Positions 1,975 to 64,000 of a DNA stretch of 64,000 nt are shown in pieces. The first letter of the stretch is position 1. Every line of letters starts with the position of its first letter. Location of the stretch: the NCBI GenBank assembly GCA_964016885.1, contig OZ024744.1, forward strand, positions 16,926,001 through 16,990,000, read 5' to 3'. A model generated the notes under the pieces. That model worked only from the letters and a program-made list of their open reading frames with translations, was not told where the DNA came from and made no database searches. The position numbers and the translations under genes are program-made. Source of the stretch: Eledone cirrhosa. Its lineage: Eukaryota.

Positions 1975-2089
1975 CATATATTTTGATTATGTGAATGTCT
2001 TCATTTATTAATATTTTGAATAATATTAATAATTCCAGAAAACTTCTTTGTAGAGTGCTTTTAATCTATAGTAAAACTATATTCATTAT

Positions 2090-33065: not shown

Positions 33066-33216
33066 AAAATGTCTTTATTCTTCTTCCGACAATTTTTTTA
33101 AATCTCTGTCAGGGAGAAAAGCAATCTTGCACAATTTGGCACGAAACGCCTATAAAAGTTAATCAGGCCAAAGAACTGGCGTAACTGACGTAGTGAGGTC
33201 GGTGGAGGCAAATCCT

Positions 33217-36805: not shown

Positions 36806-39800
36806 ATACTTTGGGAGGGTCGTGTTGCCAATAAGAAACACACGCACCACCAGCTTTCACTCCAATTTATTATAAATTAAATTTATAAATTTCCGGTTGG
36901 TTGGTTCCACAACTGGACGGTTGTTCATATATTGTCAAAGTTCTTTCGTCACACGTTCTGTGACCTCTTCAGTGACTGGGGATTCTTTTCTTTGTTTTGT
37001 GCCTCTCCTTTGTTCTGTCCTACGCCATCTTGTTTTTATGTGTGTTGTGTGCTTAGTTTGCGCATGTGTTACATCCGGGTGTCTGTGTGTGTTTATATTT
37101 GTTTATTTATTTGTTTATTTACATGTTACTGGTTGGTTGTTTGTTCTATGTGTGTGTGTGTTTTCATTTTGTCCTTAATTGTAAGTTGTGATGTTGCTAT
37201 TCCATTCATGCTTTGTATTTAACTTTGGTTAGAATTCATTTATGTTTATTGCCTCTGTGATTTGTCTAAACATTGCGTCTTTTCTGTGTGTAGATTCTAT
37301 TTTATTTCTATGTTCTCTAATTTACCCTTATGTTCTATTTTAGCATGTTGGCGGAGTATTGATGATTATTTTTATCTTGAAGCTCTCGCCAGTGTTCATT
37401 TAACCGTTCTCCTATACTACGAGCTGTCTCACCTATGTACACTATACTCTTATCTTTACATTGTCCTTCAATACATCTTATGCTATATACTATGTTTCTA
37501 GTTTTACAGTTAATATGGGGGCTTAGTTTACAGATTATGCATTTCTTATCTATACAGGGAGGTCTTTGAAAAGGGTATGTATTACTAATAAGTGTTTTTA
37601 TGGAGGTACCTGGTCTTTCTACTATCTTAATATTGAGTTTAAGTTTATCTAGGGCCCTTCTAAATGTGTAAGCTAATTCACCTCTAGGGGTTGTATTGAT
37701 GAACATTACACTCTGGTATTTATTGCTATCATACCATGAGTTTATTCTATTAACCTTATTCCCAATTCTTTCTATTCTATTCCAAAATTTGCTCCTATAC
37801 AAGGGGCAGGTCCCATTTGTGTCATTATTTACCATTTTTTCTCCATTTGGTTCTGGCTCCTCTATATATTCTGATTTTATCTCTCTGATTGTAACCAGAG
37901 AACTGCATACAGTGGATGAAGTGTTGTATGTGTCTCTTTAGTTCTTTGGGGTTACACATGCGGGACACGTTTCTCATCACCCATACCAAATCCGCAATCA
38001 GTATGTTGATTTTGGTGTGATCCGAAACAGCTGAGTTTCGGTGGATCAGATGTTTGGAGGTCATGGGTTTGGCATAATGGGAATGGAGGATTTGTTTTTT
38101 GTTATTAATGGTTTCTAACCAGAGCTCTGTGTCTAGTGCAGGTAATCGATGGTTGGGGTGTTTGCTTGGGTAGTCTATAGTAACTCTAATACTCTGGTGG
38201 ATGGAGTTAGCTATTTGCTGGATGCTTTCCATGGTGTTTTTCTCTAATTCCTGACTGTTCTATAGTGTGTGCGTGTGTGTGTGGGGGGGGGGGGTTACTA
38301 CGATGTTTATATCATCAACGTAACGGTAGTACATTACCAGGGTTAAGAGGTTGCTGTCTTCTGAAAGTTTAAGTTTAAGTTTATTATCCCACCATACCAT
38401 GAATAGGTTAGCTATGTCACCTGCAATGCTAACGCCAATGGCTTCTCCCTCCTCTTGGGCATATGTTTTACCATTAAATTTGAACATATGTTCCCTAAGG
38501 TTTAGTTTGATACTGGCCCCCACCGCATGTGCAATCATTTTCTTTAGTTCATCATGGTTTTCGGGGGTCCGTATGGCTCTGGTCCACCCGTTCCATCTTT
38601 CTGTGTGGGTTTTGTTGGCCATTGAGGTAATGGTCGGTGGTCTGCCTCTTGCTGGTCTTGTAAGGCACAGACTGCTAAGGTCATACGTATCTAGATAATC
38701 ATTATGTTTTTCCACATCATCATATGGGCATTGAGGGTTTTCTCCCTATCCACATGCTCTTGTGGTGTTTCTTCTCTTGTGTTAGTGATGTGGGGTTGCA
38801 TTGCCTGGATGTAGACTTGACAGACTGTCAACCGACATTCTGCCAGACTTGTCTGTTGGAAAGCATGCAATCTCTCCATTACGCGAGCACTGCATGAGCT
38901 TACGCAAGCCATTTGCAGATTTTTCTCCCAGTTGCTGGGCCTCCATTCTATTTTGCTTCTTGCTATACTGTTCTATAATATTTCTAAGTTTAGATATAGC
39001 TATACTAAATTGTACTTCTGTTTGTTCATCGACCTGCGACGGCAATTGCGTGCGTTTATTAAAGCTAAAGTCGTGGCGTAACTCGTCGTAGGTCGAAGGA
39101 AAGATCGGAAGGATTATAAAAAGTAGAATTCCAGGCTGCTGCTTTGTGTACTATTGCTATTGTTATTGTTAGTTGTGTTGTTTCTATTTCTATTTCCACC
39201 AACAGCCGCATGGTTGTTTCTATGTCTCTCATTATTACTCCTGCCTCTTTCCTCTGGCTCATTGTTATTATCTACTCTATCTTGTGTGTCTGTGTGTTCG
39301 TCCTGGTTATTTTCTCTGTCAGTATCGATATTCTCCCTTCGCCTTTCAATCCCATTACCTTCCCTTACTTCTGTGTTACTGTCATTAGCTATTTTCTGTG
39401 TCTGTGTGTCTGTTAAGATTGTGGTGGTGGTGAGAGGCATAGAATGTGTGTGTGTTGTTGTTGTTGTTAATGTGTGCTGTTGTTGATGTGTGTTGTTGTT
39501 GTTGTTGTTATCGTTGTTTGTGTCTGTGTGTCTGTTATTGTAGGGATGTGTGTTGTATGTGAGTGTGTGTGTATGTTGTTACGTTTGTTTTTGTATTTGT
39601 TGTTTTTGTTTTTGAGGCTCCAACGTAATTTTGTAAATGATTTTTCTATTTCTGACAAGCATCTTATCATATTTACCTTATTATATGTGGGATATTTAGG
39701 TGGTAGCTGTAATATCGATAATTCATCAGAGTCGACTGTAGTTTTGCCGTATATATTTATGTTGTTGTTGAATTCATCCGTTAATGAGATGTCGGCCATG

Positions 39801-40120
39801 TTTATACCATCAATCTTGGCTGGATATTTATCTCTATTCTCTGTAGTGTCTTGGTTTAGTTTCATCTGTTTGAGCCACATTAATTTTTTGTTAAAGTGTT
39901 TGTTGCACTCCTGGACGATGTACTTTTCTTCGTCACGTATAAGGTTTATATATACTAATGTTTCTCTTGGTGTGGTGATCTTAGTTATTTCTTGTATTAG
40001 GTTACGCTTATGTTTTTCTTGATGACTTAATTCTCTGTAAATCTTCTGTTTTATGTTCAGCATTAGTGTTCGTTTTAGCCTATCTGCTTGCTTTTTGGTA
40101 ATTTGTAATCTTACATTATT
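36799..40120 (-). mobile_element. Penelope-like element copy A (decayed; N-terminal region, RT with internal deletion, GIY-YIG, pLTR)
   Basis: ORF fragments 39467, 38782, 38260, 37825 and 37335 align to the 764-aa ORF; ~450 bp of RT is missing near 38715; the end abuts (TA)n. Confidence 0.9.
36934..36976 (-). ncRNA. PLE pLTR minimal hammerhead
   Basis: GTCA-CTGAAGA-GGTCACA gaacg TGTGAC-GAAA-GAAC-TT-TGAC. Confidence 0.75.
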
Positions 40121-41519
40121 CCCATTATGCCAAACCCATGACTAGACACAGAGCTCTGGTTAGAAACCATTAATAACAAAAAACAAATCCTCCATTCCCA
40201 TTATGCCAAACCCATGACTTCCAAATATCTGACCCACCGAAACTCAGCTGTTTCGGATCACACCAAAATCAACATACTGATTGCGGATTTAGTACGGGTG
40301 ATGAGAAACGTGTCCCGCATGTGCAACCCCAAAGAACTAGAGAGACACATACAACACTTCATCTACCGTATGCAGTTCTCTGGTTACATTCAGAGAGATA
40401 AAATCAGAGTATATAGAGGAGCCAGAACCAAATGGGAAAAAAATGGTAAATAATGACACAAATGGGACCTGCCCCTTGTATAGGAGCAAATTCTGGAATA
40501 GAAAGAATAGAAAGAATTGGGAATAAGGTTAATAGAATAAACTCATGGTATGATAGCAATAAATACCAGAGTGTAATGTTCATCGATACAACCCCTAGAG
40601 GTGAATTAGCTTACAAATTTAGAAGGGCCCTCGATAAACTTAAACTTAATATTAAGATAGTAGAAAGACCAGGTACCTCCATAAAAAAACTTATTAGCAA
40701 TACATACCCTTTTCAAAGACCTCCCTGTATAGATAAGAAATGCATAATCTGTAAACTAAGCCCCCATATTAACTGTAAAACTAGAAATGTAGTATATAGC
40801 ATAAGATGTACTGAAGGACAATGTAGAGATAAGAATATAGTGTACATAGGTGAGACAGCTCGTAGTATAGGGGAACGGATAAATGAACACTGGCGAGAGC
40901 TTCAAGATAGTAAAGAATCATCTGTACTCTACCAACATGCTAAAATAGAACATAAGGGTAAATTAGAGAACATAGAAATAAAAATAGAATATACACACAA
41001 AAAATACGCAATGTTTAGACAAATTACAGAGGCAATAAATATAAATGAACTCCAACCAAAGTTAAATAGAAAACATGAGTGGAACAGCAACATCACAACT
41101 TACAACTAAGGACAAAATGAAAACGCACACACACATAGAACAATCACCCAACCAGTAACATGTAAATAAACAAATAAATGAACAAATAAAAACACACACA
41201 GACACCCGGATGTAACACATGCGCAAACTAAACACACAACACTCACACAAACAAGATGGCGTAGGACAGAACAAAGGAGAGGCACAAAACAAAGAAAAGA
41301 ATCCCCAGTCACTGAAGAGGTCACAGAATGTGTGACGAAAGAACTTTGACAATATATGAACAACCAACCGGACGTTTATAAATTTAATTTATAATAAATT
41401 GGAGTGAAACCGGTGGTGCGTGTGTTTCTTATTGGCAACATGACCCTCCCAAATTATAACAATATCGGTTTCAACACACGTTTACAGATAAAGAATCTTG
41501 CTAATCAAATTCAGAAACG

Positions 41520-43297: not shown

Positions 43298-45592
43298 TTA
43301 ATTGTAAGTTGTGATGTTGCTGTTCCACTCATATTTTCTATTTAATTTTGGTTGTAATTCTTTTATGTTTATTGCCTCTGTAATTTGTCTAAACATTGCG
43401 TCTTTTCTGTGTGTAGATTCTATTTTTATTTCTATGTTCTCTAATTTACCCTTGTGTTCTATTTTAGCATGTTGGTAGAGTACAGATGATTCTTTACTCT
43501 CATGAAGGTCTCGCCAGTGTTCATTTATCCGTTCCCCTTCACTACGAGCTATCTCACCTATGTACACTATATTTTTGTCTCTACATTGTCCTTCAGTACA
43601 TCTTATGCTATACACTACATTTCTAGTTTTACAGTTAATATGGGGGCTTATTTTACAGGTTATACATTTCTTATCTATACATAAGGGTCTTTGAAAAGGG
43701 TATGTCTTGCTAATAAGTGTTTTTACGGAGGTACCTGGTCTTTCTACTATCTTAATATTGAGTTTATGTTTATTTAGGGCCCTTCTAAATTTGTAAGCTA
43801 ATTCACCTCTAGGGGTTGTATCGATGAACATTACACTCTGGTATTTATTGCTATCATACCATGAGTTTATTCTATTAGCCTTGTTCCTAGTTCTTTCTAT
43901 TCTATTCCAAAATTTGCTCCTATACAAGGGGCAGGTCCCATTTATGTCATTATTTCCCATTTTTTCCCATTTGGTTCTGGCTCCTCTATACACTCTGATT
44001 TTATCTCTCTGATTGTAGCCAGAGAACTGCATACGGTGGATGAAGTGCTGTATGTGCCTCTCTAGTTCTTCCGGGTTGCACATGCAGGACACGTTTCTCA
44101 TCACCCGTACCAAATCCGCAATCAGTATCTTGATTTTGGTATGGTCCGAAACGGCCGAGTTTCGGTGGATCAGATGTTTGGAAGTCATGGGTTTGGCATA
44201 ATGGGAATGGAGCATTTGTTTTTTGTTATTAATGGTATCTAACCAGAGCTCTATGTCTAGTACAGGTAATCGATGGTTGGGGTGTTTACTTGGGTAGTCT
44301 ATAGTAACTCTAATGCTCTGGTGGATGGAGTTAGCTATTTGCTGGATGCTTTCCATTGTGTTTTTCTCTAGTTCCTGACTGTTCTCTAGCGGGGGTCTCT
44401 TAACTACGATGTTTATATCATCAACGTAGCGGGAGTACATTATCAGGGTTAAGGGGTCTTCTAATTGTTCTTTAAGCTTAAGTTTAAGTCTACTGTCCCA
44501 CCATACCATGAATAAGTTAGCTATGTCGCCTGCAATGCTAACACCAATGGCTGCTCCTTCCTCTTGGGCATATGTTTTCCCATTAAATTTGAACATATGT
44601 TCCTTAAGGGTTAGTTTTATGCTGGCCCCTACCGCATGTGCAATCATTTTCTTCAGTTCATCGTGGTTTTCGGGTGTCCGTATGGCTCTGGTCCACCCGT
44701 TCCATCTATCTGTGTGGGTTTTCTTGGTCATTGAGGTAATGGTAGGTGGTCTGCCTCTTGCTGGTCTTGTAGGGCACAGGTTGCTAAGGTCATATGTGTC
44801 TAGGTAATTATTACTATAGGTAAGTTTAAGTAGGAGTCCCAGCTCACTGGTATCAATCCCACGGAACTCAACATTGCTCTCACTGATCATTTCTACGCAT
44901 TTCTCCACAGCAAAATCCACGTCAATAGATGGATACAGGGACACAACATCCATACTACCTATTATGCAGTTTGTTAGGTCCCTAGATCGGTTACTCACGC
45001 CGATTCTGCTGAGGAGGTCCTCCGTGCTGTCACATACATATGGGGACATTTCGATGATGGGGCGTATGATCAGGGAGAGGAAGTAGGACAGTCTGTAGTT
45101 ACTAGCAATGTTAGCTCCACAGACTGGCCGTGTTGGTGGTCCCGCGACAGGGTCACAGCCCGTTTTATGGTCTTTTCGAAGCCCATACAACGCCGGCACG
45201 TCATTGTTCCAGGCCTGGAAGTTGTTGGCAGTCCTTTTGTTTGGCTGCATTATATTCGTCCACATCACCATATAGGCATTGAGGGCTTTTTCTCTATCCT
45301 CATGCTCCTGTGGTGTTACTTCTCTTGTGTTAGTGATGTGGGGTTGCATTGCCTGGATGTAGTTTGGCAGGCTGTCAACCGACATTCTGCCAGACTTGTC
45401 TGTTGGAAAGCATGCTATCTCTCCATTACGCGAGCGCTGCATGAGCTTACGCAAGCCATTTGCAGATTTTTCTCCCAGTTGCTGGGCCTCCATTCTATTA
45501 TGCTTCTTGCTATACTGTTCTATAATATTTCTAAGTTCGGATCTAGCTATACTAAATTGTACTTCTGTTTGTTCATCGACCTGCGACGGCAA
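43298..45592 (-). CDS. PLE reverse transcriptase + C-terminal GIY-YIG endonuclease (764 aa open; true N-terminus missing)
   Basis: PTDKSG, LYGLRKDHK, RPV, SMDVVSLYPSI, QEEGAAIG, YSRYVDD, LPVLD, Y.KP, VVY..C..C..YIGE..R..ER..EH. Confidence 0.93.
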   Translation of the reverse strand: MPSQVDEQTEVQFSIARSELRNIIEQYSKKHNRMEAQQLGEKSANGLRKLMQRSRNGEIACFPTDKSGRMSVDSLPNYIQAMQPHITNTREVTPQEHEDREKALNAYMVMWTNIMQPNKRTANNFQAWNNDVPALYGLRKDHKTGCDPVAGPPTRPVCGANIASNYRLSYFLSLIIRPIIEMSPYVCDSTEDLLSRIGVSNRSRDLTNCIIGSMDVVSLYPSIDVDFAVEKCVEMISESNVEFRGIDTSELGLLLKLTYSNNYLDTYDLSNLCPTRPARGRPPTITSMTKKTHTDRWNGWTRAIRTPENHDELKKMIAHAVGASIKLTLKEHMFKFNGKTYAQEEGAAIGVSIAGDIANLFMVWWDSRLKLKLKEQLEDPLTLIMYSRYVDDINIVVKRPPLENSQELEKNTMESIQQIANSIHQSIRVTIDYPSKHPNHRLPVLDIELWLDTINNKKQMLHSHYAKPMTSKHLIHRNSAVSDHTKIKILIADLVRVMRNVSCMCNPEELERHIQHFIHRMQFSGYNQRDKIRVYRGARTKWEKMGNNDINGTCPLYRSKFWNRIERTRNKANRINSWYDSNKYQSVMFIDTTPRGELAYKFRRALNKHKLNIKIVERPGTSVKTLISKTYPFQRPLCIDKKCITCKISPHINCKTRNVVYSIRCTEGQCRDKNIVYIGEIARSEGERINEHWRDLHESKESSVLYQHAKIEHKGKLENIEIKIESTHRKDAMFRQITEAINIKELQPKLNRKYEWNSNITTYN

Positions 45593-45785
45593 TTGTGTGC
45601 GTTTGTTAAATGGTAAAGTCGTGGCGTGGACTCGTCGTAGGTCGAACGATTTATCGGAGGGATTATAAAAACTAGAGTTCCAGGCTGCTCCTTTATGTGT
45701 ACTAGTGCTATTGTTATTATTAGTTGATAATATTATTAGTTGATATACATATTGATAATATTATTAGTTGATAATATTATTAGTT

Positions 45786-46699: not shown

Positions 46700-47330
46700 C
46701 ATCAGTACAGCTCACTGTTCACCTGCAACTGTTAGAGCTAGTGGAAATATATACTATTTACTAAAATATACAGTGACTGATCTGCCTGATTTGCATATTA
46801 GCAGACTGGCTGATCAGTCAGATCTGCATATTAGCAGATCCATTGATCAGCCAGCTTTGCATATCAGCACACTGGCCAGTCAGTTTCCTGTATACGAGCG
46901 ATAAATGACCGGCATTGCCTCATTCAAATAAAATAAATAAAAATATTTCTCTCTACATGGCTGAATACAATAAATGTCATCTAAGTTTTTGGAATAATAA
47001 TAATAACATTCGATTCGTTTGCAATTATGCAAACAAGCCTCATTTTTAAAGCCATATCAGTAGAATGAACCGTCTTACTCTTGTGTTGGCATGTAGACAG
47101 AACAGCAGACACTAATGTTTCTGGGTATCTTCATCAGTACAGCTCACTGTTCACCTGCCAACTGTCAGAGCTAGTGAACATATATTTTCTAAAATATACA
47201 GTGATTAATCGGCCTGATTTGCATATTAGCAGACTGGCTAATCAGTCAGATCTTCATATTAGCAGATCCACTGATCAGCCAGATTTGCATATGAAGAGAT
47301 TGGCCAGACAGTTTCCTATATACGAACGAT
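46700..47330. repeat. Two ~200-bp direct repeats, each with 33-bp sub-repeats
   Basis: 46700-46902 vs 47132-47330; unit GAT(T/C)TGCATATTAGCAGA(CTGGC/TCCAT)TGATCAG(T/C)CA. Confidence 0.8.
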
Positions 47331-47499: not shown

Positions 47500-48260
47500 C
47501 TCATAGGTAGATAGTACCGTGATGACATATTTGGACAGCTGTTTATGACATGGGTGACATCTTCGATGTTAATTCTGCAGAGTCTGCACTTGTTGTCACA
47601 TCTCGGTGTTTTGCCTGCATCCCTAAAACTCAGTAACTAGGACCTTAGACACCCTAAAGTTAATCCACCAAAACTAAAAGCTCTTCCATACATCTCCCCC
47701 CCCCCCCCAAAAAAAAAATAATTGATACCTGTGCCGCCCAAAATCATCCAAAATTTAGAATCTTTCCCCTCTACAAATTTAAAGATAATGCCACCCACAC
47801 CCAGCGCATCAGTGCTATTTTTCTGTATTCCCGTATTTTGATTTGGGATCTATGGACAGTCATGTCATGCGTTGGCAGAGGCTGTTTTTAGTCCGGCCTA
47901 TGTATTGTTCTCGACAACCTGAGCAAGTTAATACATATATTAGGTTTTCTGATGCGCATGTGAAATTGTGTTTTACTATAAAACGTTGTCCTTGTTTGAA
48001 ATATAATTCCGATCCCTCTATTGGGTTGATGCATATACCACAGTTGGGTCTATCGCATTTTTTTACTGTGGGTTTGGTTGTTGTGGTTGGCAGTACTTTG
48101 GCATGTGTTAGGATGTTTTTCATTGACTTAGATTGTCTTTTGCTCTTTATGATATCGTGTGTTCAAAGGATTTGGTTCATTCTATGGTCATTTTTATAAT
48201 ACAGGGATGTTCTGGAGGATGGTGAAGAAATAGGATATATATTACAAATAAACCGGGTTT
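47500..48260 (-). pseudogene. Neptune-like PLE GIY-YIG remnant
   Basis: KC.RP.C..C..FTCASENLIYVLTCSGC.EQYIGRT..L..RMT.H (47860-48123); decayed ACAGCTGTC hammerhead tail near 47535. Confidence 0.7.
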
Positions 48261-48462
48261 TCCAGGTACAGTTTGTCCGATAAATTTTGTCAGATGCATT
48301 TGCATACATCTGTACACACATCCGCGCGCACACGCACACACTCAAATGCATGCATACAGGAAAATTGGTAACAAATACAGGAACAAGTACGAGAATAATT
48401 AATTCCAACCACTAAGCGTTCAAACGTTGTCATGGAATAATTTACAAAACGAAAACAACTCG

Positions 48463-48594
48463 TGCTCCGCTTCCTTCAATACCGAGGATGATGAAGATAG
48501 TTAACTACTGGGGCCTGACTAAGTATTTCCTCATTGTAACTGTTACAGTATAGACCTCTGGTGTCCTTGGTTCCCACATTACCACAGAGAAGAA
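48463..48594 (+). pseudogene. Degenerate CRE-type RLE coding fragment forming the left edge of the satellite
   Basis: From 48494: KIVNYWGLTKYFLIVTVTV*TSGVLGSHITT aligns ungapped to KRPKYRSLSDRFAVVPLAVETSGVLGPRATT (23623-23715, -), 14/31 identical. Confidence 0.7.
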
Positions 48595-51500
48595 GGCCTC
48601 TGTGGTCCTTGGTCCCCACATTGCCACGTAGGAGAGGACCTCTGGTGTCCTTGGTCCCACATTACCACAGAGGAGAGGACCTCTGGTGTCCTTGGTCCCC
48701 AATTACAACAGAGGAGAAGACCTCTGGAGTCAATGGTCCCACATTACCACAGAGGAGACGACCTCTGGTCTCCTTGCTCCTCACATTACCACAGAGGAGA
48801 GGACCTCTGGTGTCCTTGGTCCCCACATTACCACAGAGAAGAAGTGCTGGTGTCCTTGGTCTCCACATTACCACCGAGGAGAGGGCCTCTGGTGGCCTTG
48901 GTCCCCACCTTACCACAGAGGAGTAGAAGACTTCTGCTGTCCTTGGTCCCCACATTACCACAGAGTAGAGGAAGACACCTGGTGTCCTTGGTCCTCACAT
49001 TACCACAGAGAAGAAATCTGGTGTCCTTGGTCCCTATATAACCCCAGCGGAGTGGAAGACAACTGCTGACCTTGGTCAACACATTACCATAGAAGAGAGG
49101 AAGTCACCTGGTGACGTTAGGCCTCACATTATCACAGAGAATAATAACTCTGGTGTCCTTGGTTCACATTACCACAGAAAAGAGGAACTTTGGTGTCCTT
49201 GGTTCACATATTACCACAGAGAGGACCTCTGGTTTCCTTGGTACCCACATTACCACAGAGGAGAAGGCCTCTGGTGTCCTTGGTCCCCACATTACCACAG
49301 AGGAGAGGACCTCTGGTGTCCTTGGTCTCCATATTACCACAGAGTAGAAGACCTCTGGTGTCCTTGGTCCCCACATTACCACAGAGGAGAGGACTTCTGG
49401 TGTACTTGGTCTCCATATTACCACAGAGTAGAAGACCTCTGCTGTACTTGATACCACATTACCACTGGGATGAAGACCTCTGGCGTCCTTGGACCTCACA
49501 TTACCACAGAGGAGACTTCTGGTGTACTTGATCTCCATATTACCAGAGAGGAGTGGAAGACCTCTGCTGTCCTTGGTCCCAACATTACAACAGAGGAGAG
49601 GAAGACCCCTGGTGTCAATGGTCTCCACATTACCACAGAGGAGAGGACCTCTGGTGTCCTTGGTCTCCACATTACCACAGAGGAGAGGACCTCTGGTGTC
49701 CTTGGTCTCCACATTACTACAGAGGAGAGGACCTCTGGTGTCCTTGGTCCCCACATTACTACAGAGGAGAGGACCTCTGGTGCCCTTGGTCCCCACAATA
49801 CCACAGAAAAGAAGACCGCTGGTGTCCTTGGTCCCCACTATACCACAGACCAGAAGATCACTGTGGTCCTTCGTCCTCATTTTACCACAGAGAAGAAGAA
49901 GACCCCTGGCGTCCTTGGTCCTCACATTACCAGAGAGGAGAAGAACTCTGGTGTCCTTGGTCCCCACAATACCAGAGAGAAGACCTCTGGTGTCATTGGT
50001 ATCCTCATTATCACAGAAGAGAAGAACTCTGGTGTACTTGGGCCACACATAAACACAGAGAAGACCTCTGGTGTCCTTGGTCCTCATTATCACAGAGTGG
50101 AGAACCTCATGTTTCTTTGTCCCCACATTACCACAGACGAGAAGGCTTCTGTTGTCCTTGGTCTCCATATTATTATAGAGAAGAAGACCTCTGGTATCTT
50201 GTCCCCACATTACCACATAGGAGAAGAAGACCCCTGGTGTCTTTGGTGCGCACATTACCACAGAGGAGATGACCTGTGGTGTCCTTGGACACCACATTAC
50301 CGCAGAGAATATCTCTGGTGTCCTTGGTCATCACATTACCACAAGGAACAATGAGATGGCCTTCGCGTCCACATTATCACAGAGAAGAAGACCTCTGGTG
50401 TCCTTTGTCACCACATTATCACAGAGAAGAAGACCTCTGGTGTCTTTGGTCCTCACATTACCTCAGAGGAGAGGAAGACCTTTGATGTCCTTGGTCCCCA
50501 CATAACCACAGAGATGACCTCTGGCGTCCTTGGTCCCAATATTACCACAAAGAAGACCTCTGGTATACTTGGTCCCCATATTACCACAGAGGAGTGGAAG
50601 ACCTCTGCTCTCCTTGGTCCCAACATTAACACAATAGAGAGCAAGACCCTGGTGTCATTGGTCTCCACATTACCAAAGAGGGGAAGAAGGCCTCTGGTGT
50701 CCTTGGTACCCATATTACCACAGAGGAGAGGACCTCTGGTGTCCTTGGTCCCCACATTACAACAGAGTAGAGAACCTCTGGTGTCCTTGGTCCCCACAAT
50801 ACCACAGAGAAGAAGACCTCTGGTGTCCTTCTCCTCACATTACGAAAGAGAAGAAGACCTCTGGTGTCCTTGGTCCCCACATTACCACAGAGGAGAGAAC
50901 CTCTGTTGTCCGTAGTCTCCACATTATCAAAGACTAGAAAATCTCTGTTGTCCTTCGTCTTCATTTTACCACAGAAAAGAAGAAGACCCCTGGCGTCTTT
51001 GGTCCCCACATTACCACAGAGGAGAAGAACTCTGGAGTCCTTGGGCCCCACATAACCACAGAGGAGACAAAGACCTCTGGTGTCCTTGGTCCCATATTAC
51101 CACAGAGAAGACTGCTGGTGTCCTTGGTCCTCACATTATCACAGAGGAGTAGAAGATCTCTGGTGATCTTGGCCCACACATTATCACAGAGTGAGGACCT
51201 CATCTTTCTTGGGCGCCATATTACCACTGACGAGAAGGCTTCTGTTGTCGTTGGTCTCCATATTATTATAGAGAAGAAGACGTCTTGTGTCCTGGGTCTC
51301 ACATTACCACATAGGAGAAGAAAACCCCTGGTGTCATCGGTCCGCACATTACCACAGAGGGGAAGACCTCTGGTGTCCTTGGACCCCACATTACCAGAGA
51401 GAATATCTCTGGTTCCTTGGTTATCAAATTACAACAGAGGAGAAGACCACTGGTATATTTGGTCCCCACATAACAACAGAGAAGAGGAGACGACGTCTGG

Positions 51501-54500
51501 TGTCCTTAGTCCTCTCATTACAATAGAGGAGAAGAAGTCTGGTGTCCTTGGTTCACACATTACCACTGAGGAGAAGACCTAGTGTCCTAGGCCCTCACAT
51601 TACCACAGAGAAGAAACCTCTGGTGTCCTTCACCCCCATATTGCAACATCGCAGAAGGCATCTGGTGTTCTTGGTCCCCTTATTTCCACAGAGGAGAGGA
51701 CCTCTGGAGTCCTTGGTCCCCACATTACCACAGAGGAGATGACCTCTGGTGTCCTTGGTCCCCACATTACCACAGAGAAGAGGAGACGACCATTGTTTTG
51801 CATGGTCCTCACATTACCACAGCGGAGAAGACCTCTGGTCTCATTGGCCCACACATTACAACCGAGGAGAAGACCTGGAGACCTTGTCCCTCACATTACC
51901 ACAGAGAAGACCTCTGATGTCATTGGTCCCCATATTACCACATAGGAGAATATCTGCTGTCCTTGGTCCCCACATTACCACAGAGGAGGATGAGATCACT
52001 GGTGTCCTTGGTCCCCACATTACCACAGAGGAGAAGAAGACCTTTGGTGTCTTTGGTCCCCCATTACCATAGAGGAGAGGAACTCTGTTATCCTTGGTCC
52101 CCGCATTACTACAGAGAAGAGGAAGACCTCTGGTGTCCTTGGTCCCCACATAATCAGAGAGAAGACCACTGGCGTCGTTGGTCCCAATATTACCATAAAG
52201 AAGACCTCTGGCGTCCTTGGTCCCAATATTACCACAAAGAAGTCCTCTGGTGTAATTGGTCCCCATATTACCACAGAGGAGTGGAAGACATCTGTTGTCC
52301 TTGGTCCCAACATTAACACAATGGAGAGCAAGACACTGGTGTCATTGGTCTCCACATCACCACATAGGAGAAGAAGGCCTCTGGTGTTGTTGGTCTCCAT
52401 ATAACCACAGAGGAGAGGACCTCTGGTGACTTGGTCTCCATATTACCACAGATGAGAGGACTTCTGGTGTCCTTGGTCCCCACATTATCACAGAGGAGAA
52501 GACCTCTGGTGTCCTTGGCCCCACATTAACACAGAGAAGACCCCTGTTGTCTTTGGTCCCCACAATACCACAGAGAAGAAGAAGACCTCTGGTGTCCTTA
52601 GACCACACATTACCACAGAGAAAAAGAAGATTCTGGTGTCCTTGGTCCCCATATTACCACAGAGGAGAAGGCATCTGGTGATCTTGGTCCCCATATTTCC
52701 ACAGAGGAGAGGACCTCTGGAGTCCTTGGTCCCCACATTACCACAGAGGAGAAGACCTCTGTTGTCCTTGGTTCCCAGCTTACAACAGAGGAGACGGCCA
52801 TTGTTGTCCATGGTCCTCACATTGCCACAGAAGAAGAGCTCTGGTGTCCTTGGTCGCCACATTACACAGAGAAGACCTCTGGTGTCATTGGTCCCCGTAT
52901 TACCACAGAGGAAAAGATCTGGTGTCCTTGGTCCCCACATTACCACAGAGAAGAAGATCTCTGGTGTCCTTGGTCCCCACATTTCCATAGATGAGAAGAA
53001 CTCTGTTATCCTTGTTCGCCACATTACTACAGAGAAGCGGAAGACCTCTGGCGTCCTTGGTCCCCACATAACCACAGAGAAGACCTCTGGCGTCCTTGGT
53101 CCCAATATTACCACAAAGAAGACCTCTGGTGTAATTGGTCCCAATATTACCACAGAGGAGTAGAAGACATCTGTTGTCCTTGGTCCCAACATTAACACAA
53201 TGGAGAGCAAGACACTGGTGTCATTGGTCTCCATATAACCACATAGGAGAGGTCCTCTGGTGACCTTGGTCTCCATATTACCACAGAGGAGAGGACTTCT
53301 GGTGTCCTTGGTCCCCACATTACCACAGAAGAGAAGAAGGCCTCTGGTCTTTTTTATCTCCATATAACCACAGAGGAGAAGACCTCTGGTGTCCTTGGAC
53401 CCCACATTACCACAGAGGAGAGGACCTCTGGTGACTTTGGTCCCCTCAATACTGCAGAGAAAAAGAAGACCTCTGGTGTCCTTAGTCCACACACTACCAC
53501 AGAGAAGAAGATCTCTGGTGTCCTTGGTCCCCGCATTACCACATACCAGAAAATCTCTGTTGTCCTTCGTCCTAATTTTACCACAGAGAAGAAGACCGCT
53601 GGCGTCCTTGGTCCCCACATTACCACAGAGGAGAGGAAGATCTCTGGTGTTCTTGGTCGTCACATTACCACAGATGAGAAGCACTCTGGTGTCCTTGGGC
53701 CCCCCATAACCACAAAGGAGATGAATACCTCTGGTGTCCTTGGTAATCTCATTACCACAGAGGAGAAGATTCTGGTGTCCTTGGGCCACACCTAACCACA
53801 CGGGGGAGGACCTGATGTTGACCACAGGACGAGATGGTTCCTGTTGTCCTTGATCTCCATATTATTATTATAGAGAAGAAGACCTCATGTGTCCTTCCCC
53901 CCACATAACCACATAGGAGAAGAAGACCCCTGGTGTCATTGGTCCGCACATTATCACAGAGAAGAAGAACTCTGGTGTCCTTGGAACCCACATTACCACA
54001 GAGAATATCTCTGGTTCCTTGGTCCTCAAATTATCACAGATGAGAAGACCTCTGGCGTCCTTGTTCCTCACATTACCACAGGGAACAATGCCTCAGATGG
54101 CCTTCGTCCCCACATTACAACAGAGCAGAAGACCTCTTGTGTCATTTGTCCCCATATCACCATAGAGGAGAGGACCTCTGGTATCTTTTTATCCCCACAT
54201 AACAACAGAGAAGAGGAGACGACTTCTGGTGTCCTTGGTCCTCACATTACCACCGAGGAGAAGACCTGGCGTCCTTGGCCCTCAATTACCACAGAGAAAA
54301 AGAAGATCTCTGGTGTCCTTGGTCCCCATATTAACACAGAGGAGAAGACAAACTCTGGTGTCCTTGGTCCTCATTTAACCACAAAGGAGAAGAAGACCTC
54401 TGGTGTTTTGGTCCCCACATTACGACAGAAAAGACGAACTCTGGTGTCTTTTGTCCTCACATGACAGCAGAGGAGAAGAAGACCTCTGGTGTCCTTGGTC

Positions 54501-57500
54501 CCCACATTACCACATAGGAGAAGAAGCGCTCTGGTGTCCTTGGTCCCCACATTACCACATAGGAGAAGAAGACCTCTGGTGTCCTTGGTCCCCACATTAC
54601 CACATAGGAGAAGAAGACCTCTGGTGTCCTTGAACCCCACATTTACACAGAGGAGAAGAAGAGCTCTGGTGTCCTTGGTCCCCACATTACCACATAGGAG
54701 AAGAAGACCTCTGGTGTCCTTGAACCCCACATTACCACAGAGGAGAAAAAGAGCTCTGGTGACCTTGATCCCCACATTACAACAGAGGAGAAGAAAACCT
54801 CTGGCGTCATTGGTCCCCATATTACACACAAAGTAGAAGACATCTGGTGTCCTTGGTCCGCACATTACCATAGAGGAGAGGACCTCTGTTATCCTTGGTC
54901 CCCACATAACCACAGAGAAGAGGAGATGACTTCTGGTGTCCTTTCTACGCACATTACCACAGAGGAGAAGTCTGGTGTCCTTGGTCCACACATTACCACC
55001 GAGGAGAAAACCTGCTGTCCTTTGCCCTCACATTACCACAGAGAAAAAGAAGTCTTCTGGTGTCCTTGTTCCCCATATTACCACAGAGGAGAAGGCCTCT
55101 GGTGTCCTTGGTCCTCCACATAACCACAGAGAAAAAGATTACCTCCGGTGTTCTTGGTCCCCATATTTCTACAGAGGAGATGACCTCTGGTGTCTTTGGT
55201 ACCCTCATTATCACAGAAGAGAAGAACTCTGGTCTACTTGGGCCACACATAACGACAGAGAAGACCTCTGGTGTCCTTGGACCCCACATTACCACAGAGG
55301 AGAGGACCTCTGGTGTCTTTGGTCCCCACAATACTACAGAGAAGAAGATCTCTGGTGTCCTTGGGCCACACATAACCACACGGGGAGGACCTCATGTTTA
55401 CCACAGACGAGAAGGCTGCTGTTGTCCTTGATCTCCATATTATTATAGAGAAGAAGACCTCATGTGTCCTTAGCCCCACATTACCACATAGGAGAAGAAG
55501 ACCCCTGGTGTCATTGGTCCGCACATTACCACAGAGAAGAAGAACTCTGGTGTCCTTGGAACCCACATTACCACAGAGAATATCTCTGGTTCCTTGGTCC
55601 TCAAATTATCACAGATGAGAAGACCTCTGGCGTCCTTGTTCCTCACATTACCACAGGGAACAATGCCTCAGATGGCCTTCGTCCCCACATTACAACAGAG
55701 CAGAAGACCTCTTGTGTCATTTGACCCCATATCACCATAGAGGAGAGGACCTCTGGTATCTTTTTATCCCCACATAACAACAGAGAAGAGGAGACGACTT
55801 CTGGTGTCCTTGGTCCTCACATTACCACCGAGGAGAAGATCTGGCGTCCTTGGCCCTCAATTACCACAGAGAAAAAGAAGATCTCTGGTGTCCTTGGTCC
55901 CCATATTAACACAGAGGAGAAGGCCTCTGGTGACTTTGGTCCTCATATTACAACAGAGAAGACCTCTGGAGTCATTGGTCCCCACATTACCACAGAGGAG
56001 ATGACCTCTGGTGTCCTTGGTCCCCACATTACCACAGAGAAGTGGAAGACCTCGGCTGACCTTGGTCACCATATTACCACAGAGGAGAGACCTCTGGTAT
56101 CCTTGGTCCCCACATTATCACAGAGGAGAAGAAGAACTCTGGTGACCTTGGTGCACGCGTTAAACGGAGCAGAGGTAGATACCTGCTGACCTTGATCACC
56201 ACATTACCACACACGAGAGGGCCTCTGGTGTCCTTGGTTTCCATAGTACCTGAGAGGAGAAGGCGATTGGTGTCCTTGGCACCCACATTACCATAGAGGA
56301 GAAGAAGACCTCTGGTGTCCTTGGTCCCCACATTATCACAGAGAAGACAAACTCTGGTGTCCTTGGTCCTCATTTAACCACAAAGGAGAAGAAGACCTCT
56401 GGTGTCTTAGGTCCCCACGTTACCACAGAGAAGACGAACTCTGGTGTCTTTTGTCCTCACATGACCGCAGAGGAGAAGAAGACCTCTGGTGTTCTTGGTC
56501 CCCACATTACCACATAGGAGAAGAAGAGCTCTGGTGTCCTTGAACCCCACATTTACACAGAGGAGAAGAAGAGCTCTGGTGTCCTTGAACCCCACATTAC
56601 CACAGAGGAGAAGAAGAGCTCTGGTGTCCTTGGTCCCCACATTACCACAGAGGAGAAGAAGACCTCTGGTGTCATTGGTCCCCACATTACCACATAGGAG
56701 AAGAAGACCTCTGGTGTCCTTGAACCCCACATTTACACAGAGGAGAAGAAGAGCTCTGGTGTCCTTGGTCCCCACATTACCACAGAGGAGAAGAAGACCT
56801 CTGGTGTCCTTGAACCCCACATTACCACAGAGGAGAAAAAGAGCTCTGGTGACCTTGATCCCCACATTACAACAGAGGAGAAGAAAACTTCTGGTGTCAT
56901 TGGTCCCCATATTACACACAAAGTAGAAGACATCTGGTGTCCTTGGTCCGCACATTACCATAGAGGAGAGGACCTCTGTTATCCTTAGTCCCCACATAAC
57001 CACAGAGAAGAGGAGATGACTTCTGGTGTCCTTTCTACGCACATTACCACAGAGGAGAAGAAGTCTGGTGTCCTTGGTCCACACATTACCACCGAGGAGA
57101 AAACCTGCTGTCCTTTGCCCTCACATTACCACAGAGAAAAAGAAGTCTTCTGGTGTCCTTGTTCCCCATATTACCACAGAGGAGAAGGCCTCTGGTGTCC
57201 TTGGTCCTCCACATAACCACAGAGAAAAAGAAGACCTCCGGTGTTCTTGGTCCCCATATTTCTACAGAGGAGATGACCTCTGGTGTCTTTGGTACCCTCA
57301 TTATCACAGAAGAGAAGAACTCTGGTCTACTTGGGCCACACATAACGACAGAGAAGACCTCTGGTGTCCTTGGACCCCACATTACCACAGAGGAGAGGAC
57401 CTCTGGTGTCTTTGGTCCCCACAATACTACAGAGAAGAAGATCTCTGGTGTCCTTGGGCCACACATAACCACACGGGGGAGGACCTCATGTTTACCACAG

Positions 57501-60500
57501 ACGAGAAGGCTGCTGTTGTCCTTGATCTCCATATTATTATAGAGAAGAAGACCTCATGTGTCCTTAGCCCCACATTACCACATAGGAGAAGAAGACCCCT
57601 GGTGTCATTGGTCCGCACATTACCACAGAGAAGAAGAACTCTGGTGTCCTTGGAACCCACATTACCACAGAGAATATCTCTGGTTCCTTGGTCCTCAAAT
57701 TATCACAGATGAGAAGACCTCTGGCGTCCTTGTTCCTCACATTACCTCAGGGAACAATGCCTCAGATGGCCTTCGTCCCCACATTACAACAGAGCAGAAG
57801 ACCTCTTGTGTCATTTGTCCCCATATCACCATAGAGGAGAGGACCTCTGGTATCTTTTTATCCCCACATAACAACAGAGAAGAGGAGACGACTTCTGGTG
57901 TCCTTGGTCCTCACATTACCACCGAGGAGAAGATCTGGCGTCCTTGGCCCTCAATTACCACAGAGAAAAAGAAGATCTCTGGTGTCCTTGGTCCCCATAT
58001 TAACACAGAGGAGAAGGCCTCTGGTGACTTTGGTCCTCATATTACAACAGAGAAGACCTCTGGAGTCATTGGTCCCCACATTACCACAGAGGAGATGACC
58101 TCTGGTGTCCTTGGTCCCCACATTACCACAGAGAAGTGGAAGACCTCGGCTGACCTTGGTCACCATATTACCACAGAGGAGAGACCTCTGGTATCCTTGG
58201 TCCCCACATTATCACAGAGGAGAAGAAGAACTCTGGTGACCTTGGTGCACGCGTTAAACGGAGCAGAGGTAGATACCTGCTGACCTTGATCACCACATTA
58301 CCACACACGAGAGGGCCTCTGGTGTCCTTGGTTTCCATAGTACCTGAGAGGAGAAGGCGATTGGTGTCCTTGGCACCCACATTACCACAGAGGAGAAAAA
58401 GACCTCTGGTGTCCTTGGTCCCCACATTATCACAGAGAAGACAATCTCTGGTGTCCTTGGTCCTCATTTAACCACAAAGGAGAAGAAGACCTCTGGTGTC
58501 TTAGGTCCCCACATTACCACAGAGAAGACGAACTCTGGTGTCTTTTGTCCTCACATGACCGCAGAGGAGAAGAAGACCTCTGGTGTCCTTGGTCCCGACA
58601 TTACCACATAGGAGAAGAAGACCTCTGGTGTCCTTGAAGCCCACATTTACACAGAGGAGAAGAAGAGCTCTGGTGTCCTTGGTCCCCACATTACAACAGA
58701 GGAGAAGAAGACCTCTGGTGTCATTGGTCCCCACATTACCACATAGGAGAAGAAGACCTCTGGTGTCCTTGAACCCCACATTACCACAGAGGAGAAGAAG
58801 ACCTCTGGTGTTCTTGGTCCCCACATTACCACAGAGGAGAAGAAGACCTCTGGTGTCCTTGAACCCCACATTACCACAGAGGAGAAAAAGAGCTCTGGTG
58901 ACCTTGGTCCCCACATTACAACAGAGGAGAAGAAAACCTCTGGTGTTATTGGTCCCCATATTACACACAAAGTAGAAGACATCTGGTGTCCTTGGTCCGC
59001 ACATTACCATAGAGGAGAGGACCTCTGTTATCCTTGGTCCCCACATAACCACAGAGAAGAGGAGATGACTTCTGGTGTCCTTTCTACTCACATTACCACA
59101 GAGGAGAAGAAGTCTGGTGTCCTTGGTCCACACATTACCACCGAGGAGAAAACCTGGTGTCCTTGGCCCTCACATTACCACAGAGTAGAAGAAGTCTGTT
59201 GTACTTGGCCCTCATATTACCACAGAGAAAAAGAAGTCTTCTGGTGTCCTTGTTCCCCATATTACCACAGAGGAGAAGGCCTCTGGTGTCCTTGGTCCCC
59301 CACATAACCACAGAGAAAAAGAAGAACTCTGCTGTTCTTGGTCCCCATATTCGCACAGAGGAGATGACCTCTGGTGACCTTGGTCCCCACATTACCACAG
59401 ACGAGAAGACCTCTGGTGTCCTTGGGCTTCATATTACCACAGAGGAGGAGAAGAATTCCTCCTGTGTCCTTGGTCCCCCACATTACCACAGAGAAGACAT
59501 CTCGTGTCCTTGGTCCCGACATTAACACAGAGAACTCCTCTGGTGACCTTGGTCCCTACATTACCACTGAGGAGAATAACTCTTGTGTCCTTGGTCCCCA
59601 CATTACAACAGAGGAATAGACCTCTGGTGTCTTTGGTCCCCACATTACCACATAGGAGAGGACCTCAAGTGGCCTTTGTCCCCACGTTACCAAAGAGGAG
59701 AGGAAGACCTCTGGTGTCGATGTTCCACACTTTACCACAGAGAAGAAGACCTGTAGCGTCCATGGTCCCCATATACCACAGAGGAGAGGACCTCTAGTGT
59801 CCTTGGTCCCCACATTACCACAGAGGACAGGACCTGTGGCGTCCTTGGTACCCACATTATCACAGAGGAGGAGAACACCTCTGGTGTCCTTGGTCACCAC
59901 AGTACCAAAGAGGAGAAGACCTCTGGTGTCGTTGGTCTCCATATTACCACAGAGGATAAGATCTCTTTTGACCTTGGTCCCCAAATTACCACAGAGAAGA
60001 CATCTCGTAACCTTGGTCGTCACATTACCACAGATGAGAGGACCTATGCTGTCCTTGGTCCCCACATTATCAGAGAGGAAAAGAGATCTTGTGTCCTTTG
60101 TCCTCACATTACCACAGATAAGAGGAAGACCTCTCGTGTCCTAGGTCCCCACATTACCACAGAGAAGAGGACCTCAGGTGTCCTTGGTCCCCACATTACC
60201 ACAAGGAGAGGACCTCTGGTGTCCTTGGTCCCCACATTACCACAGAGAGAAAACCTCTGGCGTCCTTGGTCCCCACATTACCACAGAGTAGAGGACCTCT
60301 AGTGTCCTTGGTCCCCACATTACCACAAGGAGAGGACCTCTGGTGTCCTTGGTCCCCACATTACCGCAGAGGTGAGGACCTCTGGGATCCTTGGTCTCCA
60401 CTTTATCACAGAGGAGGAGAACAACTCTGGTGTCTTTGGTCCCCACATTACCACATAGGAGAGGACCTCAGGTGGCCTTTGTCCCCACATTACCAAAGAG

Positions 60501-63500
60501 GAGAGGAAGACATCTGGTGTCGATGTTCCACACTTTACCACAGAGAAGAAGACCTGTAGCGTCCATGGTCCCCATATACCACAGAGGAGAGGACCTCTAG
60601 TGTCCTTGGTCCCCACATTACCACAGAGGACAGGACCTGTGGCGTCCTTGGTACCCACATTATCACAGAGGAGGAGAACACCTCTGGTGTCCTTGGTCAC
60701 CACATTACCAAAGAGGAGAAGACCTCTGGTGTCGTTGGTTTCCATATTACCACAGAGGATAAGATCTCTTTTGACCTTGGTCCCCAAATTACCACAGAGA
60801 AGACATCTCGTAACCTTGGTCGTCACATTACCACAGATGAGAGGACCTATGCTGTCCTGGTCCCCACATTATCAGAGAGGAGAAGAGATCTTGTGTCCTT
60901 TGTCCTCACATTACCACAGATAAGAGGAAGACCTCCGGTGTCCTAGGTCCCCACATTACCACAGAGAAGAGGACCTCTGGTGTCCTTGGTCCCCACATTA
61001 CTAAAAGGAGAGGACCTCTGGTGTCCTTGGTCCCCACATTACAGCAGAGGTGAGGACCTCTGGGGTCCTTGGTCTCCATTTTATCAAAGAGGAGGGGAAC
61101 AACTCTGGTGTCGTTGATCTCCATATTACCACAGAGGAGTAGATCTCTTGTGATCTTGGTCCCCATATTACCGCAGAGAAGAGACCTGGTGTCCTTGGAC
61201 GTCACCTTACCTCAGAGGAGAAGAAGACCTTTGGTGCCCTTGGTCCCTACATTACCACAGAGGAGAAGAAGATCTCTGGTGTCCTTGCACGTCACATTAC
61301 CACAGAGGAGAAGAAGATCTCTGGTATCCTTGGACGTCACATTACCACAGAGGAGAGGACCTCTGGTGTCCTTGGTCCCCACATTAACACAGAGGAGAAG
61401 AAGAGCTCTGGTGTCCTTGGACGTCACATTAGCACAGAGGAGAGGACCTAAGGTGGCCTTGGTCCCCACATTACTACAGAGGAAAAAGAGATCTGTTGTC
61501 CTTTGTCCGTACATTACCACAGAGGAGAGGAAGACCTCTGGTGTCCTTGGTCCCCATATTACCAAAGGAGAAGATCTGGTGTCCTTGGTCCTCACATTAC
61601 CACAGAGGAGAAGATCTCTGGTTTCCTTGGTCCCTACATTACTACAGAGAAGAACTCGAGTGTCCTTGCTGCCCACATTACCAAAGTGGAGAAGAATACC
61701 TCTGGTGTCCTGGCTCCCCACATTACCACAGAGAAGAAGACCTCTGGTGTCATTTGTCCCCACATTATCATAGAGAAGAAAACCTCTGGTGTCTTTGGTC
61801 CCCACATTAGCACAGAAGAGGGGAACTCTGGTGTCCTTGGTCCCCACATTTCAACAGAAGGGAGGAGGACCTCTGGTGTTATTGGTCCCACATTACCACT
61901 AAGGAGAGGACATCTCTTGTCCGTTGTCTCCACATTACCACAGACGAGAAGATCTCTGGTGTCCGTAGTCTACACATTACTACAGAGGAGAGGACCTCTG
62001 TTGTCCTTGATCCCTACATTACCACAGAGAGGACGGACTCTGGTGTCCTAGGTCCTCATGTTACAATAGAGGAGAAGACCTGGTGTTCTTGGTCCTCACA
62101 TTACCACAGAGAAGATAAACTCTGGTGTCCTTGGTCCTCATTTTACCACAGAGGAGAGGACCTCTGGTGTCCTTGCTGCCCACATTACCACAGAGAAAAA
62201 GACCTCTGGTGTCCTTGGTCCCTACATTACCTCAGTGAATACGAACTCTGGTGTCCTTGGTCGTCACATGACCACAGAGAAGAAGAAGACCTCTGGTGTC
62301 TTTGGTCCCCACATTACCACATAGGAGAAGAAGACTTCTGGTGTCCTTGGTCCTCACATTACCACAGAGGAGAAGAAGACCTCTGGTGTCCTTGGTCCCC
62401 ACATTCCCACATAGGAGAAGAAGACCTCTGGTGTGATTGGTCCCCGCATTACCACATAGGAGAAGATCTCTTGTTTCCTTGGTCCCCACATTACCACAGA
62501 GGAGAAGGAGTCCTCTAGTGTGGTTGGTCCCCATATTACACACAAAGTAGAAGACATCTGGTGTCCTCCTTGGTCCCCACATTACGATAGAGGAGAGGAC
62601 CTCTGGTAGCCTTGGTCGCCTCATAACCAAATAGAAGAGGAGACGACTTCTGGTGTCCTTTCTACTCACATCACCACAGATGAGAAGAAGTCTTGTGTCC
62701 TTGGTCCACATATTACCACCGAGGAGAAGACCTGGTGTCCTTGGCCCTCACATTACCACAGAGTAGAAGAACTCTTGTGTCCTCATATTACCACAGATAA
62801 AAAGAAGTCTTTTGGTGTCCTTGTTCCCCATATTACCACAGAGGAGAAGGCCTCTGGTGTCCTTGGTCCCTACATTACCACAGAGGAGAACACAACTGGT
62901 GTATTTCGTCCCCACATTAGCACAGAGGGGAAGACCTCTGGTGTCCTTGGTCCCCACATTTCCACAGAAGAGAAGACCTCTAGCGTCCTTCGTCCCCATA
63001 TACCACAGAGGAGAGCAAGAATACTGGTGTCCTTGGTCCCCACATTACCACAGAGGAGTTTGGTCCTTACATTGCCACAGAGGAAAAGACATTTGGTGTC
63101 TTTCGTCCCCACATTTGCACAGAGGGGAAGACCTCTATTGTCCTTGATCCCTACATTACCACAGAGAGGACGAACTCTGGTGTCCTAGGTCCTCATGTTA
63201 CAATAGAAGAGAATCCTGGTGTTCTTGGTCCTCACATTACCACAGAGAAGACAAACTCTGGTGTCCTTGGTCCTCATTTTACCACAGAGGAGAGGACCTC
63301 TGGAGTCCTTGCTGCCCACATTACCACAGAGAAAAAGACCTCTGGTGTCCTTGGTCCCTACATTACGTCAGTGAATACGAACTCTGGTGTCCTTGGTCCT
63401 CACATGACCACATAGGAGAAGAAGACCTCTGGTGTCCTTGGTCCCTACATTACCACATAGGAGAAGAAGACCTTTGGTGTCCTTGGTCCCCACATTACCA

Positions 63501-64000
63501 CAGAAGAGAAGAAGACCTCTGGTGTCCTTGGGCCCCACATTACGACAGAGGAGAAGAAGACCTCTGGTGTGATTGGTCCCCATATTACACAAAGTAGAAG
63601 ACATCTGGTGTCCTTGGTCTCCACATAACCACAGAGAAGAGGAGACGACTTCTGGTGTCCTTTCTACTCACATTACCACAGAGGAGAAGAAGTCTTGTGT
63701 GCTTGGCCCTCACTTTACCACAGAGAAGAAGATCTCTGGTGTCCTTGGACCCCATATTACCACAGAGGAGAGGAAAACTTCTGGTGTCCTTGTTCCCCAT
63801 ATTACCACAGAGAAGAGGAAGTCTGGTGTCTTTGGTCCTTACATTACCCCAGAGGAAAAGACATCTGGTGTCTTTCGTCCCCGCATTAGCACCGAGGGGT
63901 AGACCTCTGGAGTCCTTGGTTCCCACATTACCACAGATTAGAGGACCTCTGGTGTCCTTGGTTCCCACATTACCACAGAGAAAACCCCTGGTGCCCTTGG
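48551..64000. repeat. Satellite array, 39-45-bp monomer, more than 15.4 kb, runs off the window, with higher-order repeats
   Basis: Consensus GACCTCTGGTGTCCTTGGTCCCCACATTACCACAGAGGAGAA(GAA); roughly 360 monomers from length/43. Confidence 0.97.

Follow-up and report, generated by a model that had tools for sequence, protein, structure and literature searches.

A long satellite array in the genome of Eledone cirrhosa begins inside what reads as retrotransposon endonuclease (RLE) coding DNA, which raises the question of whether coding sequence of this kind can seed a satellite and, if so, where and how the first duplication arose. The locus lies in the window analyzed here, a stretch of 64,000 nucleotides on contig C28 (OZ024744.1, 16926001-16990000) of the 3.0-Gb assembly (Table 1). 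We conclude that the window array is almost certainly of RLE origin, derived from the K..KY to VETSG stretch of a CRE-like non-LTR family that encodes both a reverse transcriptase (RT) and an RLE.

Table 1. Features of the window. Positions count from the first letter of the window; profile positions count from the first base of EERK in the parent family.
Feature	Coordinates	Strand	Remarks
Near full-length CRE-like element	2075-4730	+	PHD-like N-terminus, RT with YLDD, CCHC, RLE start; frameshifted and cut before K..KY by a (TA)n tract
(CAC)n-type trinucleotide array	10355-13194		2.8 kb, 75% matches
CRE-like 3' fragment (CCHC, RH, PD..D, K..KY, RGNA)	23350-24380	-	related but different family
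Ty3/gypsy-like pol region	31245-34858	-	RT, RNase H, integrase
RT ORF of 820 aa, presumably Penelope-like	43298-45760	-	GIY-YIG-like C-terminus; further fragments at 37335-41109
Segment of ~200 bp, present twice ~430 bp apart	46700-46900 and 47130-47310		three 33-bp repeats in each
5'-truncated parent remnant (..GSAARNA region)	48457-48483	+	profile positions -27 to -1; outside any repeat unit
First and sole full-length (102-bp type) unit	48484-48575	+	coding DNA for EERKIVKY..VETSGVLGP in decayed form, carrying a stop and one additional base
First duplication junction ('HITT' linker plus EE)	48576-48589	+	fits reverse complement of RGNA-coding segment, positions 191-204
Tandem array of 42/45-bp units	48552-64000	+	TRF and unit spacings; runs on to ~64850 outside the window
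Block duplications in the array	53841-59400	+	k-mer offsets ~2.09, 1.57, 3.66, 2.04 and 4.13 kb; right end approximate (last start plus offset)

A sequence-only reading of the window had described a satellite of more than 15 kb, and this description was borne out. Within the window TRF reported a period of 42 bp, 364.5 copies and 74% matches, and with the sequence beyond the window edge, which the array passes by about 850 bp, it spans 48552-64824 with 384 copies over ~16.3 kb. The spacings between 370 junctions were mostly 42 bp (160) and 45 bp (94), followed by 39 bp (31) and 41 bp (22), and the 3-bp length steps are located in the purine tract of the units. Megablast detected no higher-order repeats in the array; k-mer offsets did reveal block duplications, which likely reflect growth by multi-kilobase unequal exchange. 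The last degenerate unit adjoins a GGT-rich simple repeat, and the resumption of the RLE that had been expected at this far end was absent, with no 3' half of the parent element in the 100 kb past the window. A family copy at ~70.4-70.9 kb lies on the opposite strand, holds a single unit and is a separate insertion. At the other end, the joint between flank and array was spanned by Logan contigs from two runs of a single sample, which may be the one used for the assembly (X1, 48160-48582 with two differing letters; X2, 48160-48588 with one), and therefore the joint is not an artefact of the present assembly. The array start fell outside the coverage of RAD-seq runs X4 and X5. Periods of 102, 45, 42 and 39 bp are in frame, and a protein-coding role was considered and set aside, as the plus-strand frames of the array break within ~300 codons. 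We read the window array and its relatives as neutral, selfish DNA, with no function apparent here.

The assignment to RLE-coding DNA rests on the left flank and the first unit. The remnant left of the array is 77-83% identical by BLAST to dispersed family copies, and together with the first unit it gave an nhmmer match at 48457-48580 (profile positions -27 to 95, E=2.3e-24). The flank alone (48457-48551) scored 47.2 bits (E=8.9e-15) on a DNA profile built from 25 dispersed copies of the family, with the window excluded, whereas 0 of 500 shuffled sequences gave a match. The earlier claim that a CRE-like family supplied RLE-coding DNA to both monomer and left flank is supported. A flank-only search of the genome returned another 28 matches, with identities of 74-84%; in 27 the RLE-like part was covered. 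The translations KIVNYWGLTKYFLIVTVTV* and KRPKYRSLSDRFAVVPLAVE proposed for an in-frame continuation of the match were confirmed, and an ungapped comparison of the flank with the CRE-like 3' fragment of the window gave 25/60 (p=0.0009 by shuffling). An independent protein profile of 70 homologues did not recognize the flank alone (-2.6 bits, with 202 of 500 shuffles as high) and gave 7.3 bits for flank plus first unit. The reported match of a 38-mer to 23624-23661 (-) was confirmed at 29/38, with a next best of 21/38 in the 48.4 kb outside the array; the 38-mer as quoted has no exact occurrence in the window, and the agreement of its 3' letters (HIT against RAT) is likely coincidental. The fragment that it matches (23.4-24.4 kb) was rejected as parent at only 278/433 (64%) identity to the parent columns, and over the flank it scores 55/94 compared with 69/94 for the first unit of the array.

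The parent family is old and high-copy, with 2112 and 3225 candidates in first-look searches. Its dispersed copies align to RLE protein (tblastn to E=1.7e-55) and translate as RLE C-termini, for example SAARNAEERKIVKYWGLTDCFLFAPVSVEASGVL in L003 and GPRTADF..ILRGNAFAIL in L044, followed by a shared 3' UTR. The 3' end is common to the copies and the 5' ends are truncated; the long copies L034 and L147 extend into RT. In tblastn matches of L029, L034, L147 and L148 the layout comprises RT, CCHC and a PD-(D/E)xK endonuclease with RH, PD..D, K..KY and RG. We place the family provisionally in the CRE clade from its YLDD and C-terminal pattern; L034 carries YLD, and YLDD is found in the window copy and in P0002. 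Homologues of the window RLE copy mostly bear RT (RVT_1), and those of ~900-1000 aa look full-length; few are named, and no named CRE element was among them. The window RLE ORF had no Pfam family and no match in a PDB sequence search, in which the RT gave merely weak L1 ORF2 matches. A search for target-site duplications at 20 loci detected none, with a mean score of 8.45 for own pairs and 8.22 for cross pairs; the copies are 16-19% diverged. A separate observation concerns composite repeats on five contigs (L002, L004, L007, L009 and L010, on C19, C18, C28, C12 and C1), which form a young clade with support of 100/98. In these a parent RLE fragment lacking VETSG is joined to a common downstream sequence that resembles a tRNA-derived SINE; the composites are a second non-autonomous derivative of the parent family.

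The duplication seen at the left edge of the array is widespread. A tandem 102-bp unit (about -2 to 95 of the profile plus linker) is present in fixed position and orientation at no fewer than 37 loci on 17 contigs. One of the searches contributing to this set took in 100 of 106 matches, and three candidates were left out: L178 at C7:78.8 Mb, in which the duplication was not clear, L185 at C11:43.1 Mb, which the profile did not match, and an unduplicated copy at C1:104.1 Mb. The 5' ends of the loci range from -221 to about +60, and 32 of the 37 resume into the parent C-terminus; the exceptions are the window array, C26:19.46, C21:2.08, C23:0.74 and C3:287.0. Most loci hold 2-4 units, and junctions per locus, counted at 36 of the 37, range from 1 to 1046, with intermediate values of 6, 9 and 13 at C22:10.9, C21:21.3 and C26:16.2, respectively. 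Longer arrays consist of a 130-bp unit over ~3 kb at C24:17.2, a 71-bp unit over 27 kb at C26:19.46, and 45/42-bp units at seven loci, six of them on C28. The 130-, 71- and 45/42-bp units are derivatives of the 102-bp unit. As read from the sequence, loss of the 57 bp that separate two AGA trinucleotides turns the 102-bp unit into the 45-bp one. The 42/45-bp monomer comprises parent positions 0-12 and 67-93 plus the linker; a search of the window array for the long unit gave a single match, at 48498. The largest array, 48 kb at C28:12.2855-12.334 Mb, contains 1070 junctions bracketed by the two halves (-221 to 93 and -2 to 327) of one element. The satellite accounts for little of the 3-Gb genome, about 0.1 Mb in all, with 2072 junctions counted in the assembly; the monomer depth summed over X1 and X2, at ~1500-1800 times unique depth, is of the same order, though this ratio is not a copy number. 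Two further structures were seen among the duplication-bearing copies. At C28:30.235-30.242 Mb (L006, L061-L062) the array has two strand switches (a fold-back) and mixes 102-bp and 45-bp units, and the tail of L176 (C2:396.84 Mb) contains at 858-1306 a second, independent tandem repeat of profile positions 133-185.

An exact 20-nt junction pattern had 488 matches genome-wide (240+248), all within 11 loci. Each of these has parent sequence at one edge at least, so the assembly holds no orphan array with the exact motif. The test that the sequence-only reading had set for refuting its claim did not refute an RLE origin.

That reading had further placed the sole birth site of the satellite in the window, seeded at the VETxG motif of a CRE family reading ETSGVLGPHITT. 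In its favor, the window array does start inside a 5' remnant of the parent, the match at 29/38 was confirmed, and the linker agrees over 6 nt with the CRE family of the window. We nevertheless consider this origin barely credible. Columns 93-100 of 56 unduplicated parent copies read ..RTAD (GPRTADF), and none belongs to a ETSGVLGPHITT family; since these copies continue as GPRTAD, HITT is not parental but is the duplication junction. The seed was accordingly not VETxG itself but the 102-bp duplication running from EERK to VETSGVLGP, of which the 45-bp unit is a deletion. The duplication is carried by 36 other loci, several of which have longer 5' remnants and also possess 3' ends, and one of which is the 48-kb array; 13 of the 37 retain the same kind of 5' flank, and the window shares private substitutions with other C28 arrays. 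The linker also fits an inverted RGNA segment far better than it fits the CRE family of the window.

In a comparison of the 14-nt junction with the plus and minus strands of the parent profile, the best position was the minus strand of the RGNA-coding segment at 191-204, with 17.1 bits against 4.9 for the next. Of 1500 random linkers whose parent-derived ends were kept, 1 fitted equally well. Short matches flank the linker at both ends and there are three mismatches, each of the CpG type and all in one direction, and hence the template must have been a variant or partly decayed. We think it likely that the linker was copied from an inverted RGNA-coding template. We infer that the junction was made by a two-jump template switch, for which RT snap-back on nascent cDNA and replication-fork switching both fit.

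The same junction could in principle have formed many times, had RT slipped at one RNA or cDNA structure during many insertions. The segment upstream of EERK and the RGNA segment are complementary in the parent columns and could make a hotspot, and a star-like tree of 82 rows contains no duplication clade (19 changes compared with 19.7 for shuffled labels), which also speaks for recurrence. A CpG-intact template would then yield TG about as often as CA, and CpG sites in the parent family are split about evenly between CG, TG and CA. The linker dinucleotide, readable at 36 of the 37 loci (C21:12.41 has a shortened joint), is instead CA at 30, TA at 5, CG at 1 and TG at none, which argues for one origin. 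The loci were found in part with junction-containing patterns, which biases the set toward junction conservation, although the dinucleotide itself was left free. Recurrent formation is therefore very improbable, and we favor a single duplication event.

How did one duplication reach so many sites? No collinear flank homology was found among 15 of the 37 loci, nor among 7 loci compared with 4-4.5-kb flanks. Segmental duplication was rejected as the means of spread, because the flank matches came from unrelated dispersed repeats, spaced unequally, or from the 3' UTR of the element. Outside C28, CpG sites decayed independently in units and tails, with shared-derived ratios of 1.02 and 1.00. Taken together, varied 5' truncation, a kept 3' end, non-collinear flanks and independent CpG decay point to retrotransposition from an undecayed master in the main burst, and spread from a single master is the likely course. 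The duplicated unit includes the K..KY helix of the parent endonuclease. In passages of PMC4838377, K..KY, RH and RG.W are motifs known from R2Bm, where the first K..KY lysine is catalytic; a duplication here would thus probably have inactivated the protein, which makes it likely that spread occurred in trans. Tails are 18.8% diverged in duplicated copies and 15.8% in unduplicated ones, a value biased low because the latter were picked as best BLAST hits. Three results stand against this course: no tail position diagnostic of a duplication-bearing subfamily was found, the tree contains no duplication clade, and target-site duplications went undetected.

Contig C28, a 136-Mb sequence numbered after contigs of 24-37 Mb, departs from this pattern. 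It makes up 4.6% of the genome yet holds six of the seven 42/45-bp arrays, which is not expected from random retrotransposition. By comparison, C1-C4, about half the assembly, hold 9 of the 37 duplication loci, to which search bias may contribute. The C28 edge units have A20C, G56T and C65G in common, along with uniform decay at some CpG sites. G56T occurs in 8/8 C28 rows and 3/82 others, A20C in 4/8 and 0/84, and the first unit of the window array carries both. Shared-derived ratios on C28 reached 2.37 in units, against a null maximum of 1.72, and 1.89 in 5' parts; the ratio in tails, 1.62, barely exceeded its null maximum of 1.61. The four C28 rows of the 82-row tree were not grouped (3 changes, with 20 of 500 shuffles as low). 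The kinship of the edge units makes the window array a likely sibling of the C28 arrays and not the birth site, and on balance we lean toward common descent of these siblings. Their likely source is either an aged copy that was re-mobilized or ectopic exchange within one chromosome.

The C28 siblings are also the most plausible case for a different mode of spread, in which units invaded pre-existing single-unit copies as DNA, through extrachromosomal circles or ectopic gene conversion, and each locus kept its own 5' part and tail. Consistent with invasion, copies bearing the duplication do not group by their tails, the C28 arrays are more closely akin in units than in tails, the three private C28 variants all lie within the unit and none in the tail, and the 42/45-bp arrays cluster on one contig. 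Yet C28 tails and 5' parts too show some excess sharing, and outside C28 unit sharing is at chance and CpG decay independent, which would require an invader as young as the master. We therefore regard invasion as unlikely.

Our preferred reading, which we hold to be probable, is that a single 102-bp duplication formed in an active copy, that retrotransposition likely took it to dozens of sites, and that unequal exchange then likely enlarged it locally. A polymerase, plausibly the RT of the element in a snap-back on its cDNA, would have left the EERK region, switched to the strand complementary to the RGNA region and returned to VETSGVLGP; the product would be a tandem duplication with a short inverted linker at the joint. 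The duplicated RNA would then have been inserted by target-primed reverse transcription, probably in trans, as 5'-truncated and 3'-intact copies with 2-4 units. At some sites the units, whose structures we observe, would have multiplied in place as their lengths mutated to 45/42, 71 or 130 bp, with arrays of 3, 16, 27 and 48 kb as the outcome. More tentatively, the six 42/45-bp arrays of C28 may stem from, or have exchanged with, one progenitor that had already decayed. The fullest version of this account is a satellite-seeding retrotransposon, in which one RT template switch doubled the catalytic helix of the endonuclease, the crippled RNA was spread in trans to at least 37 sites, four monomers (102, 130, 71 and 45/42 bp) expanded independently and an aged array copy was re-mobilized to give the C28 siblings; as a whole this proposal is less likely than not.

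Other elements in the window were noted alongside the array. Both CRE-like copies end in or sit among TA-rich repeats; insertion into a specific repeat is typical of the CRE clade, though not universal. The 33-bp repeats left of the array contain what we take to be octamer motifs, resembling ATTTGCAT; the ~200-bp segment that bears them was present in 1 of 188 loci compared, its own region, and the pair is possibly a regulatory cluster. Rfam had no match in the window between 44 and 50 kb.

Similarity between monomers is usually the basis for guesses at how the first tandem duplication behind a satellite arose and why some seeds expand and others do not. In E. cirrhosa the junction that founded the satellite and its probable template can be seen alongside unexpanded carriers, intermediates and large arrays with different monomers, at 37 loci of similar age, and this series from two units to over a thousand is likely a fossil record of satellite seeding, spread and expansion. 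Its interest lies in this completeness rather than in any function. With such a series one can test whether satellite seeds come from RT template switching, whether expansion is greater for shorter monomers and what it is about C28 that favors spread or growth. If the satellite-seeding account is true, a single genome preserves every step from the first duplication to the 48-kb array at the level of single bases.

CR1 and L1 elements, from which several satellites have come, are APE-type. According to passages of a 2022 review (PMC9659126), the chicken HinfI repeat comprises the CR1 3' UTR plus partial ORF2, Phodopus PROsat comes from L1 ORF2 and the cetacean common satellite from the L1 3' end; as here, non-LTR and partly coding sequence makes up the monomers, but these cases are cited there as monomer similarity and ours involves an RLE-type element. 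The words 'CRE' and 'endonuclease' do not occur in that review. The sources of satellites named in passages of a 2025 review are LTRs, gag/pol and LINE UTRs (PMC12628747). Non-LTR clades encoding an RLE are CRE, R2, R4, NeSL and HERO in the relevant passages of PMC4640811, and the layout RT, CCHC, RH, PD..D, K..KY and RG described there and in parts of PMC4838377 is that of the parent family here. In the literature searched, mostly open-access main texts, we found no satellite derived from an RLE or from CRE.

Internal repeats of transposable elements are already known as a source of satellites, and an RLE-type origin and a catalytic coding motif extend this source. CficCl-61-40 of Chenopodium, a ~40-bp satellite described in PMC7320549, comes from the tnp2 transposase domain of the CACTA-like element Jozin; it is a major satellite from a DNA transposon, whereas the satellite described here is minor and both halves of the element can bracket an array. 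A likeness of process exists with Ogre of Lathyrus sativus as presented in passages of PMC7004042, where a dispersed retroelement likewise has short arrays at one set position, few of its copies have grown long arrays and intermediate stages are visible. Ogre is an LTR element with its arrays downstream of gag-pol, whereas those of E. cirrhosa consist of catalytic-domain coding DNA of a non-LTR element and carry a defined inverted junction.
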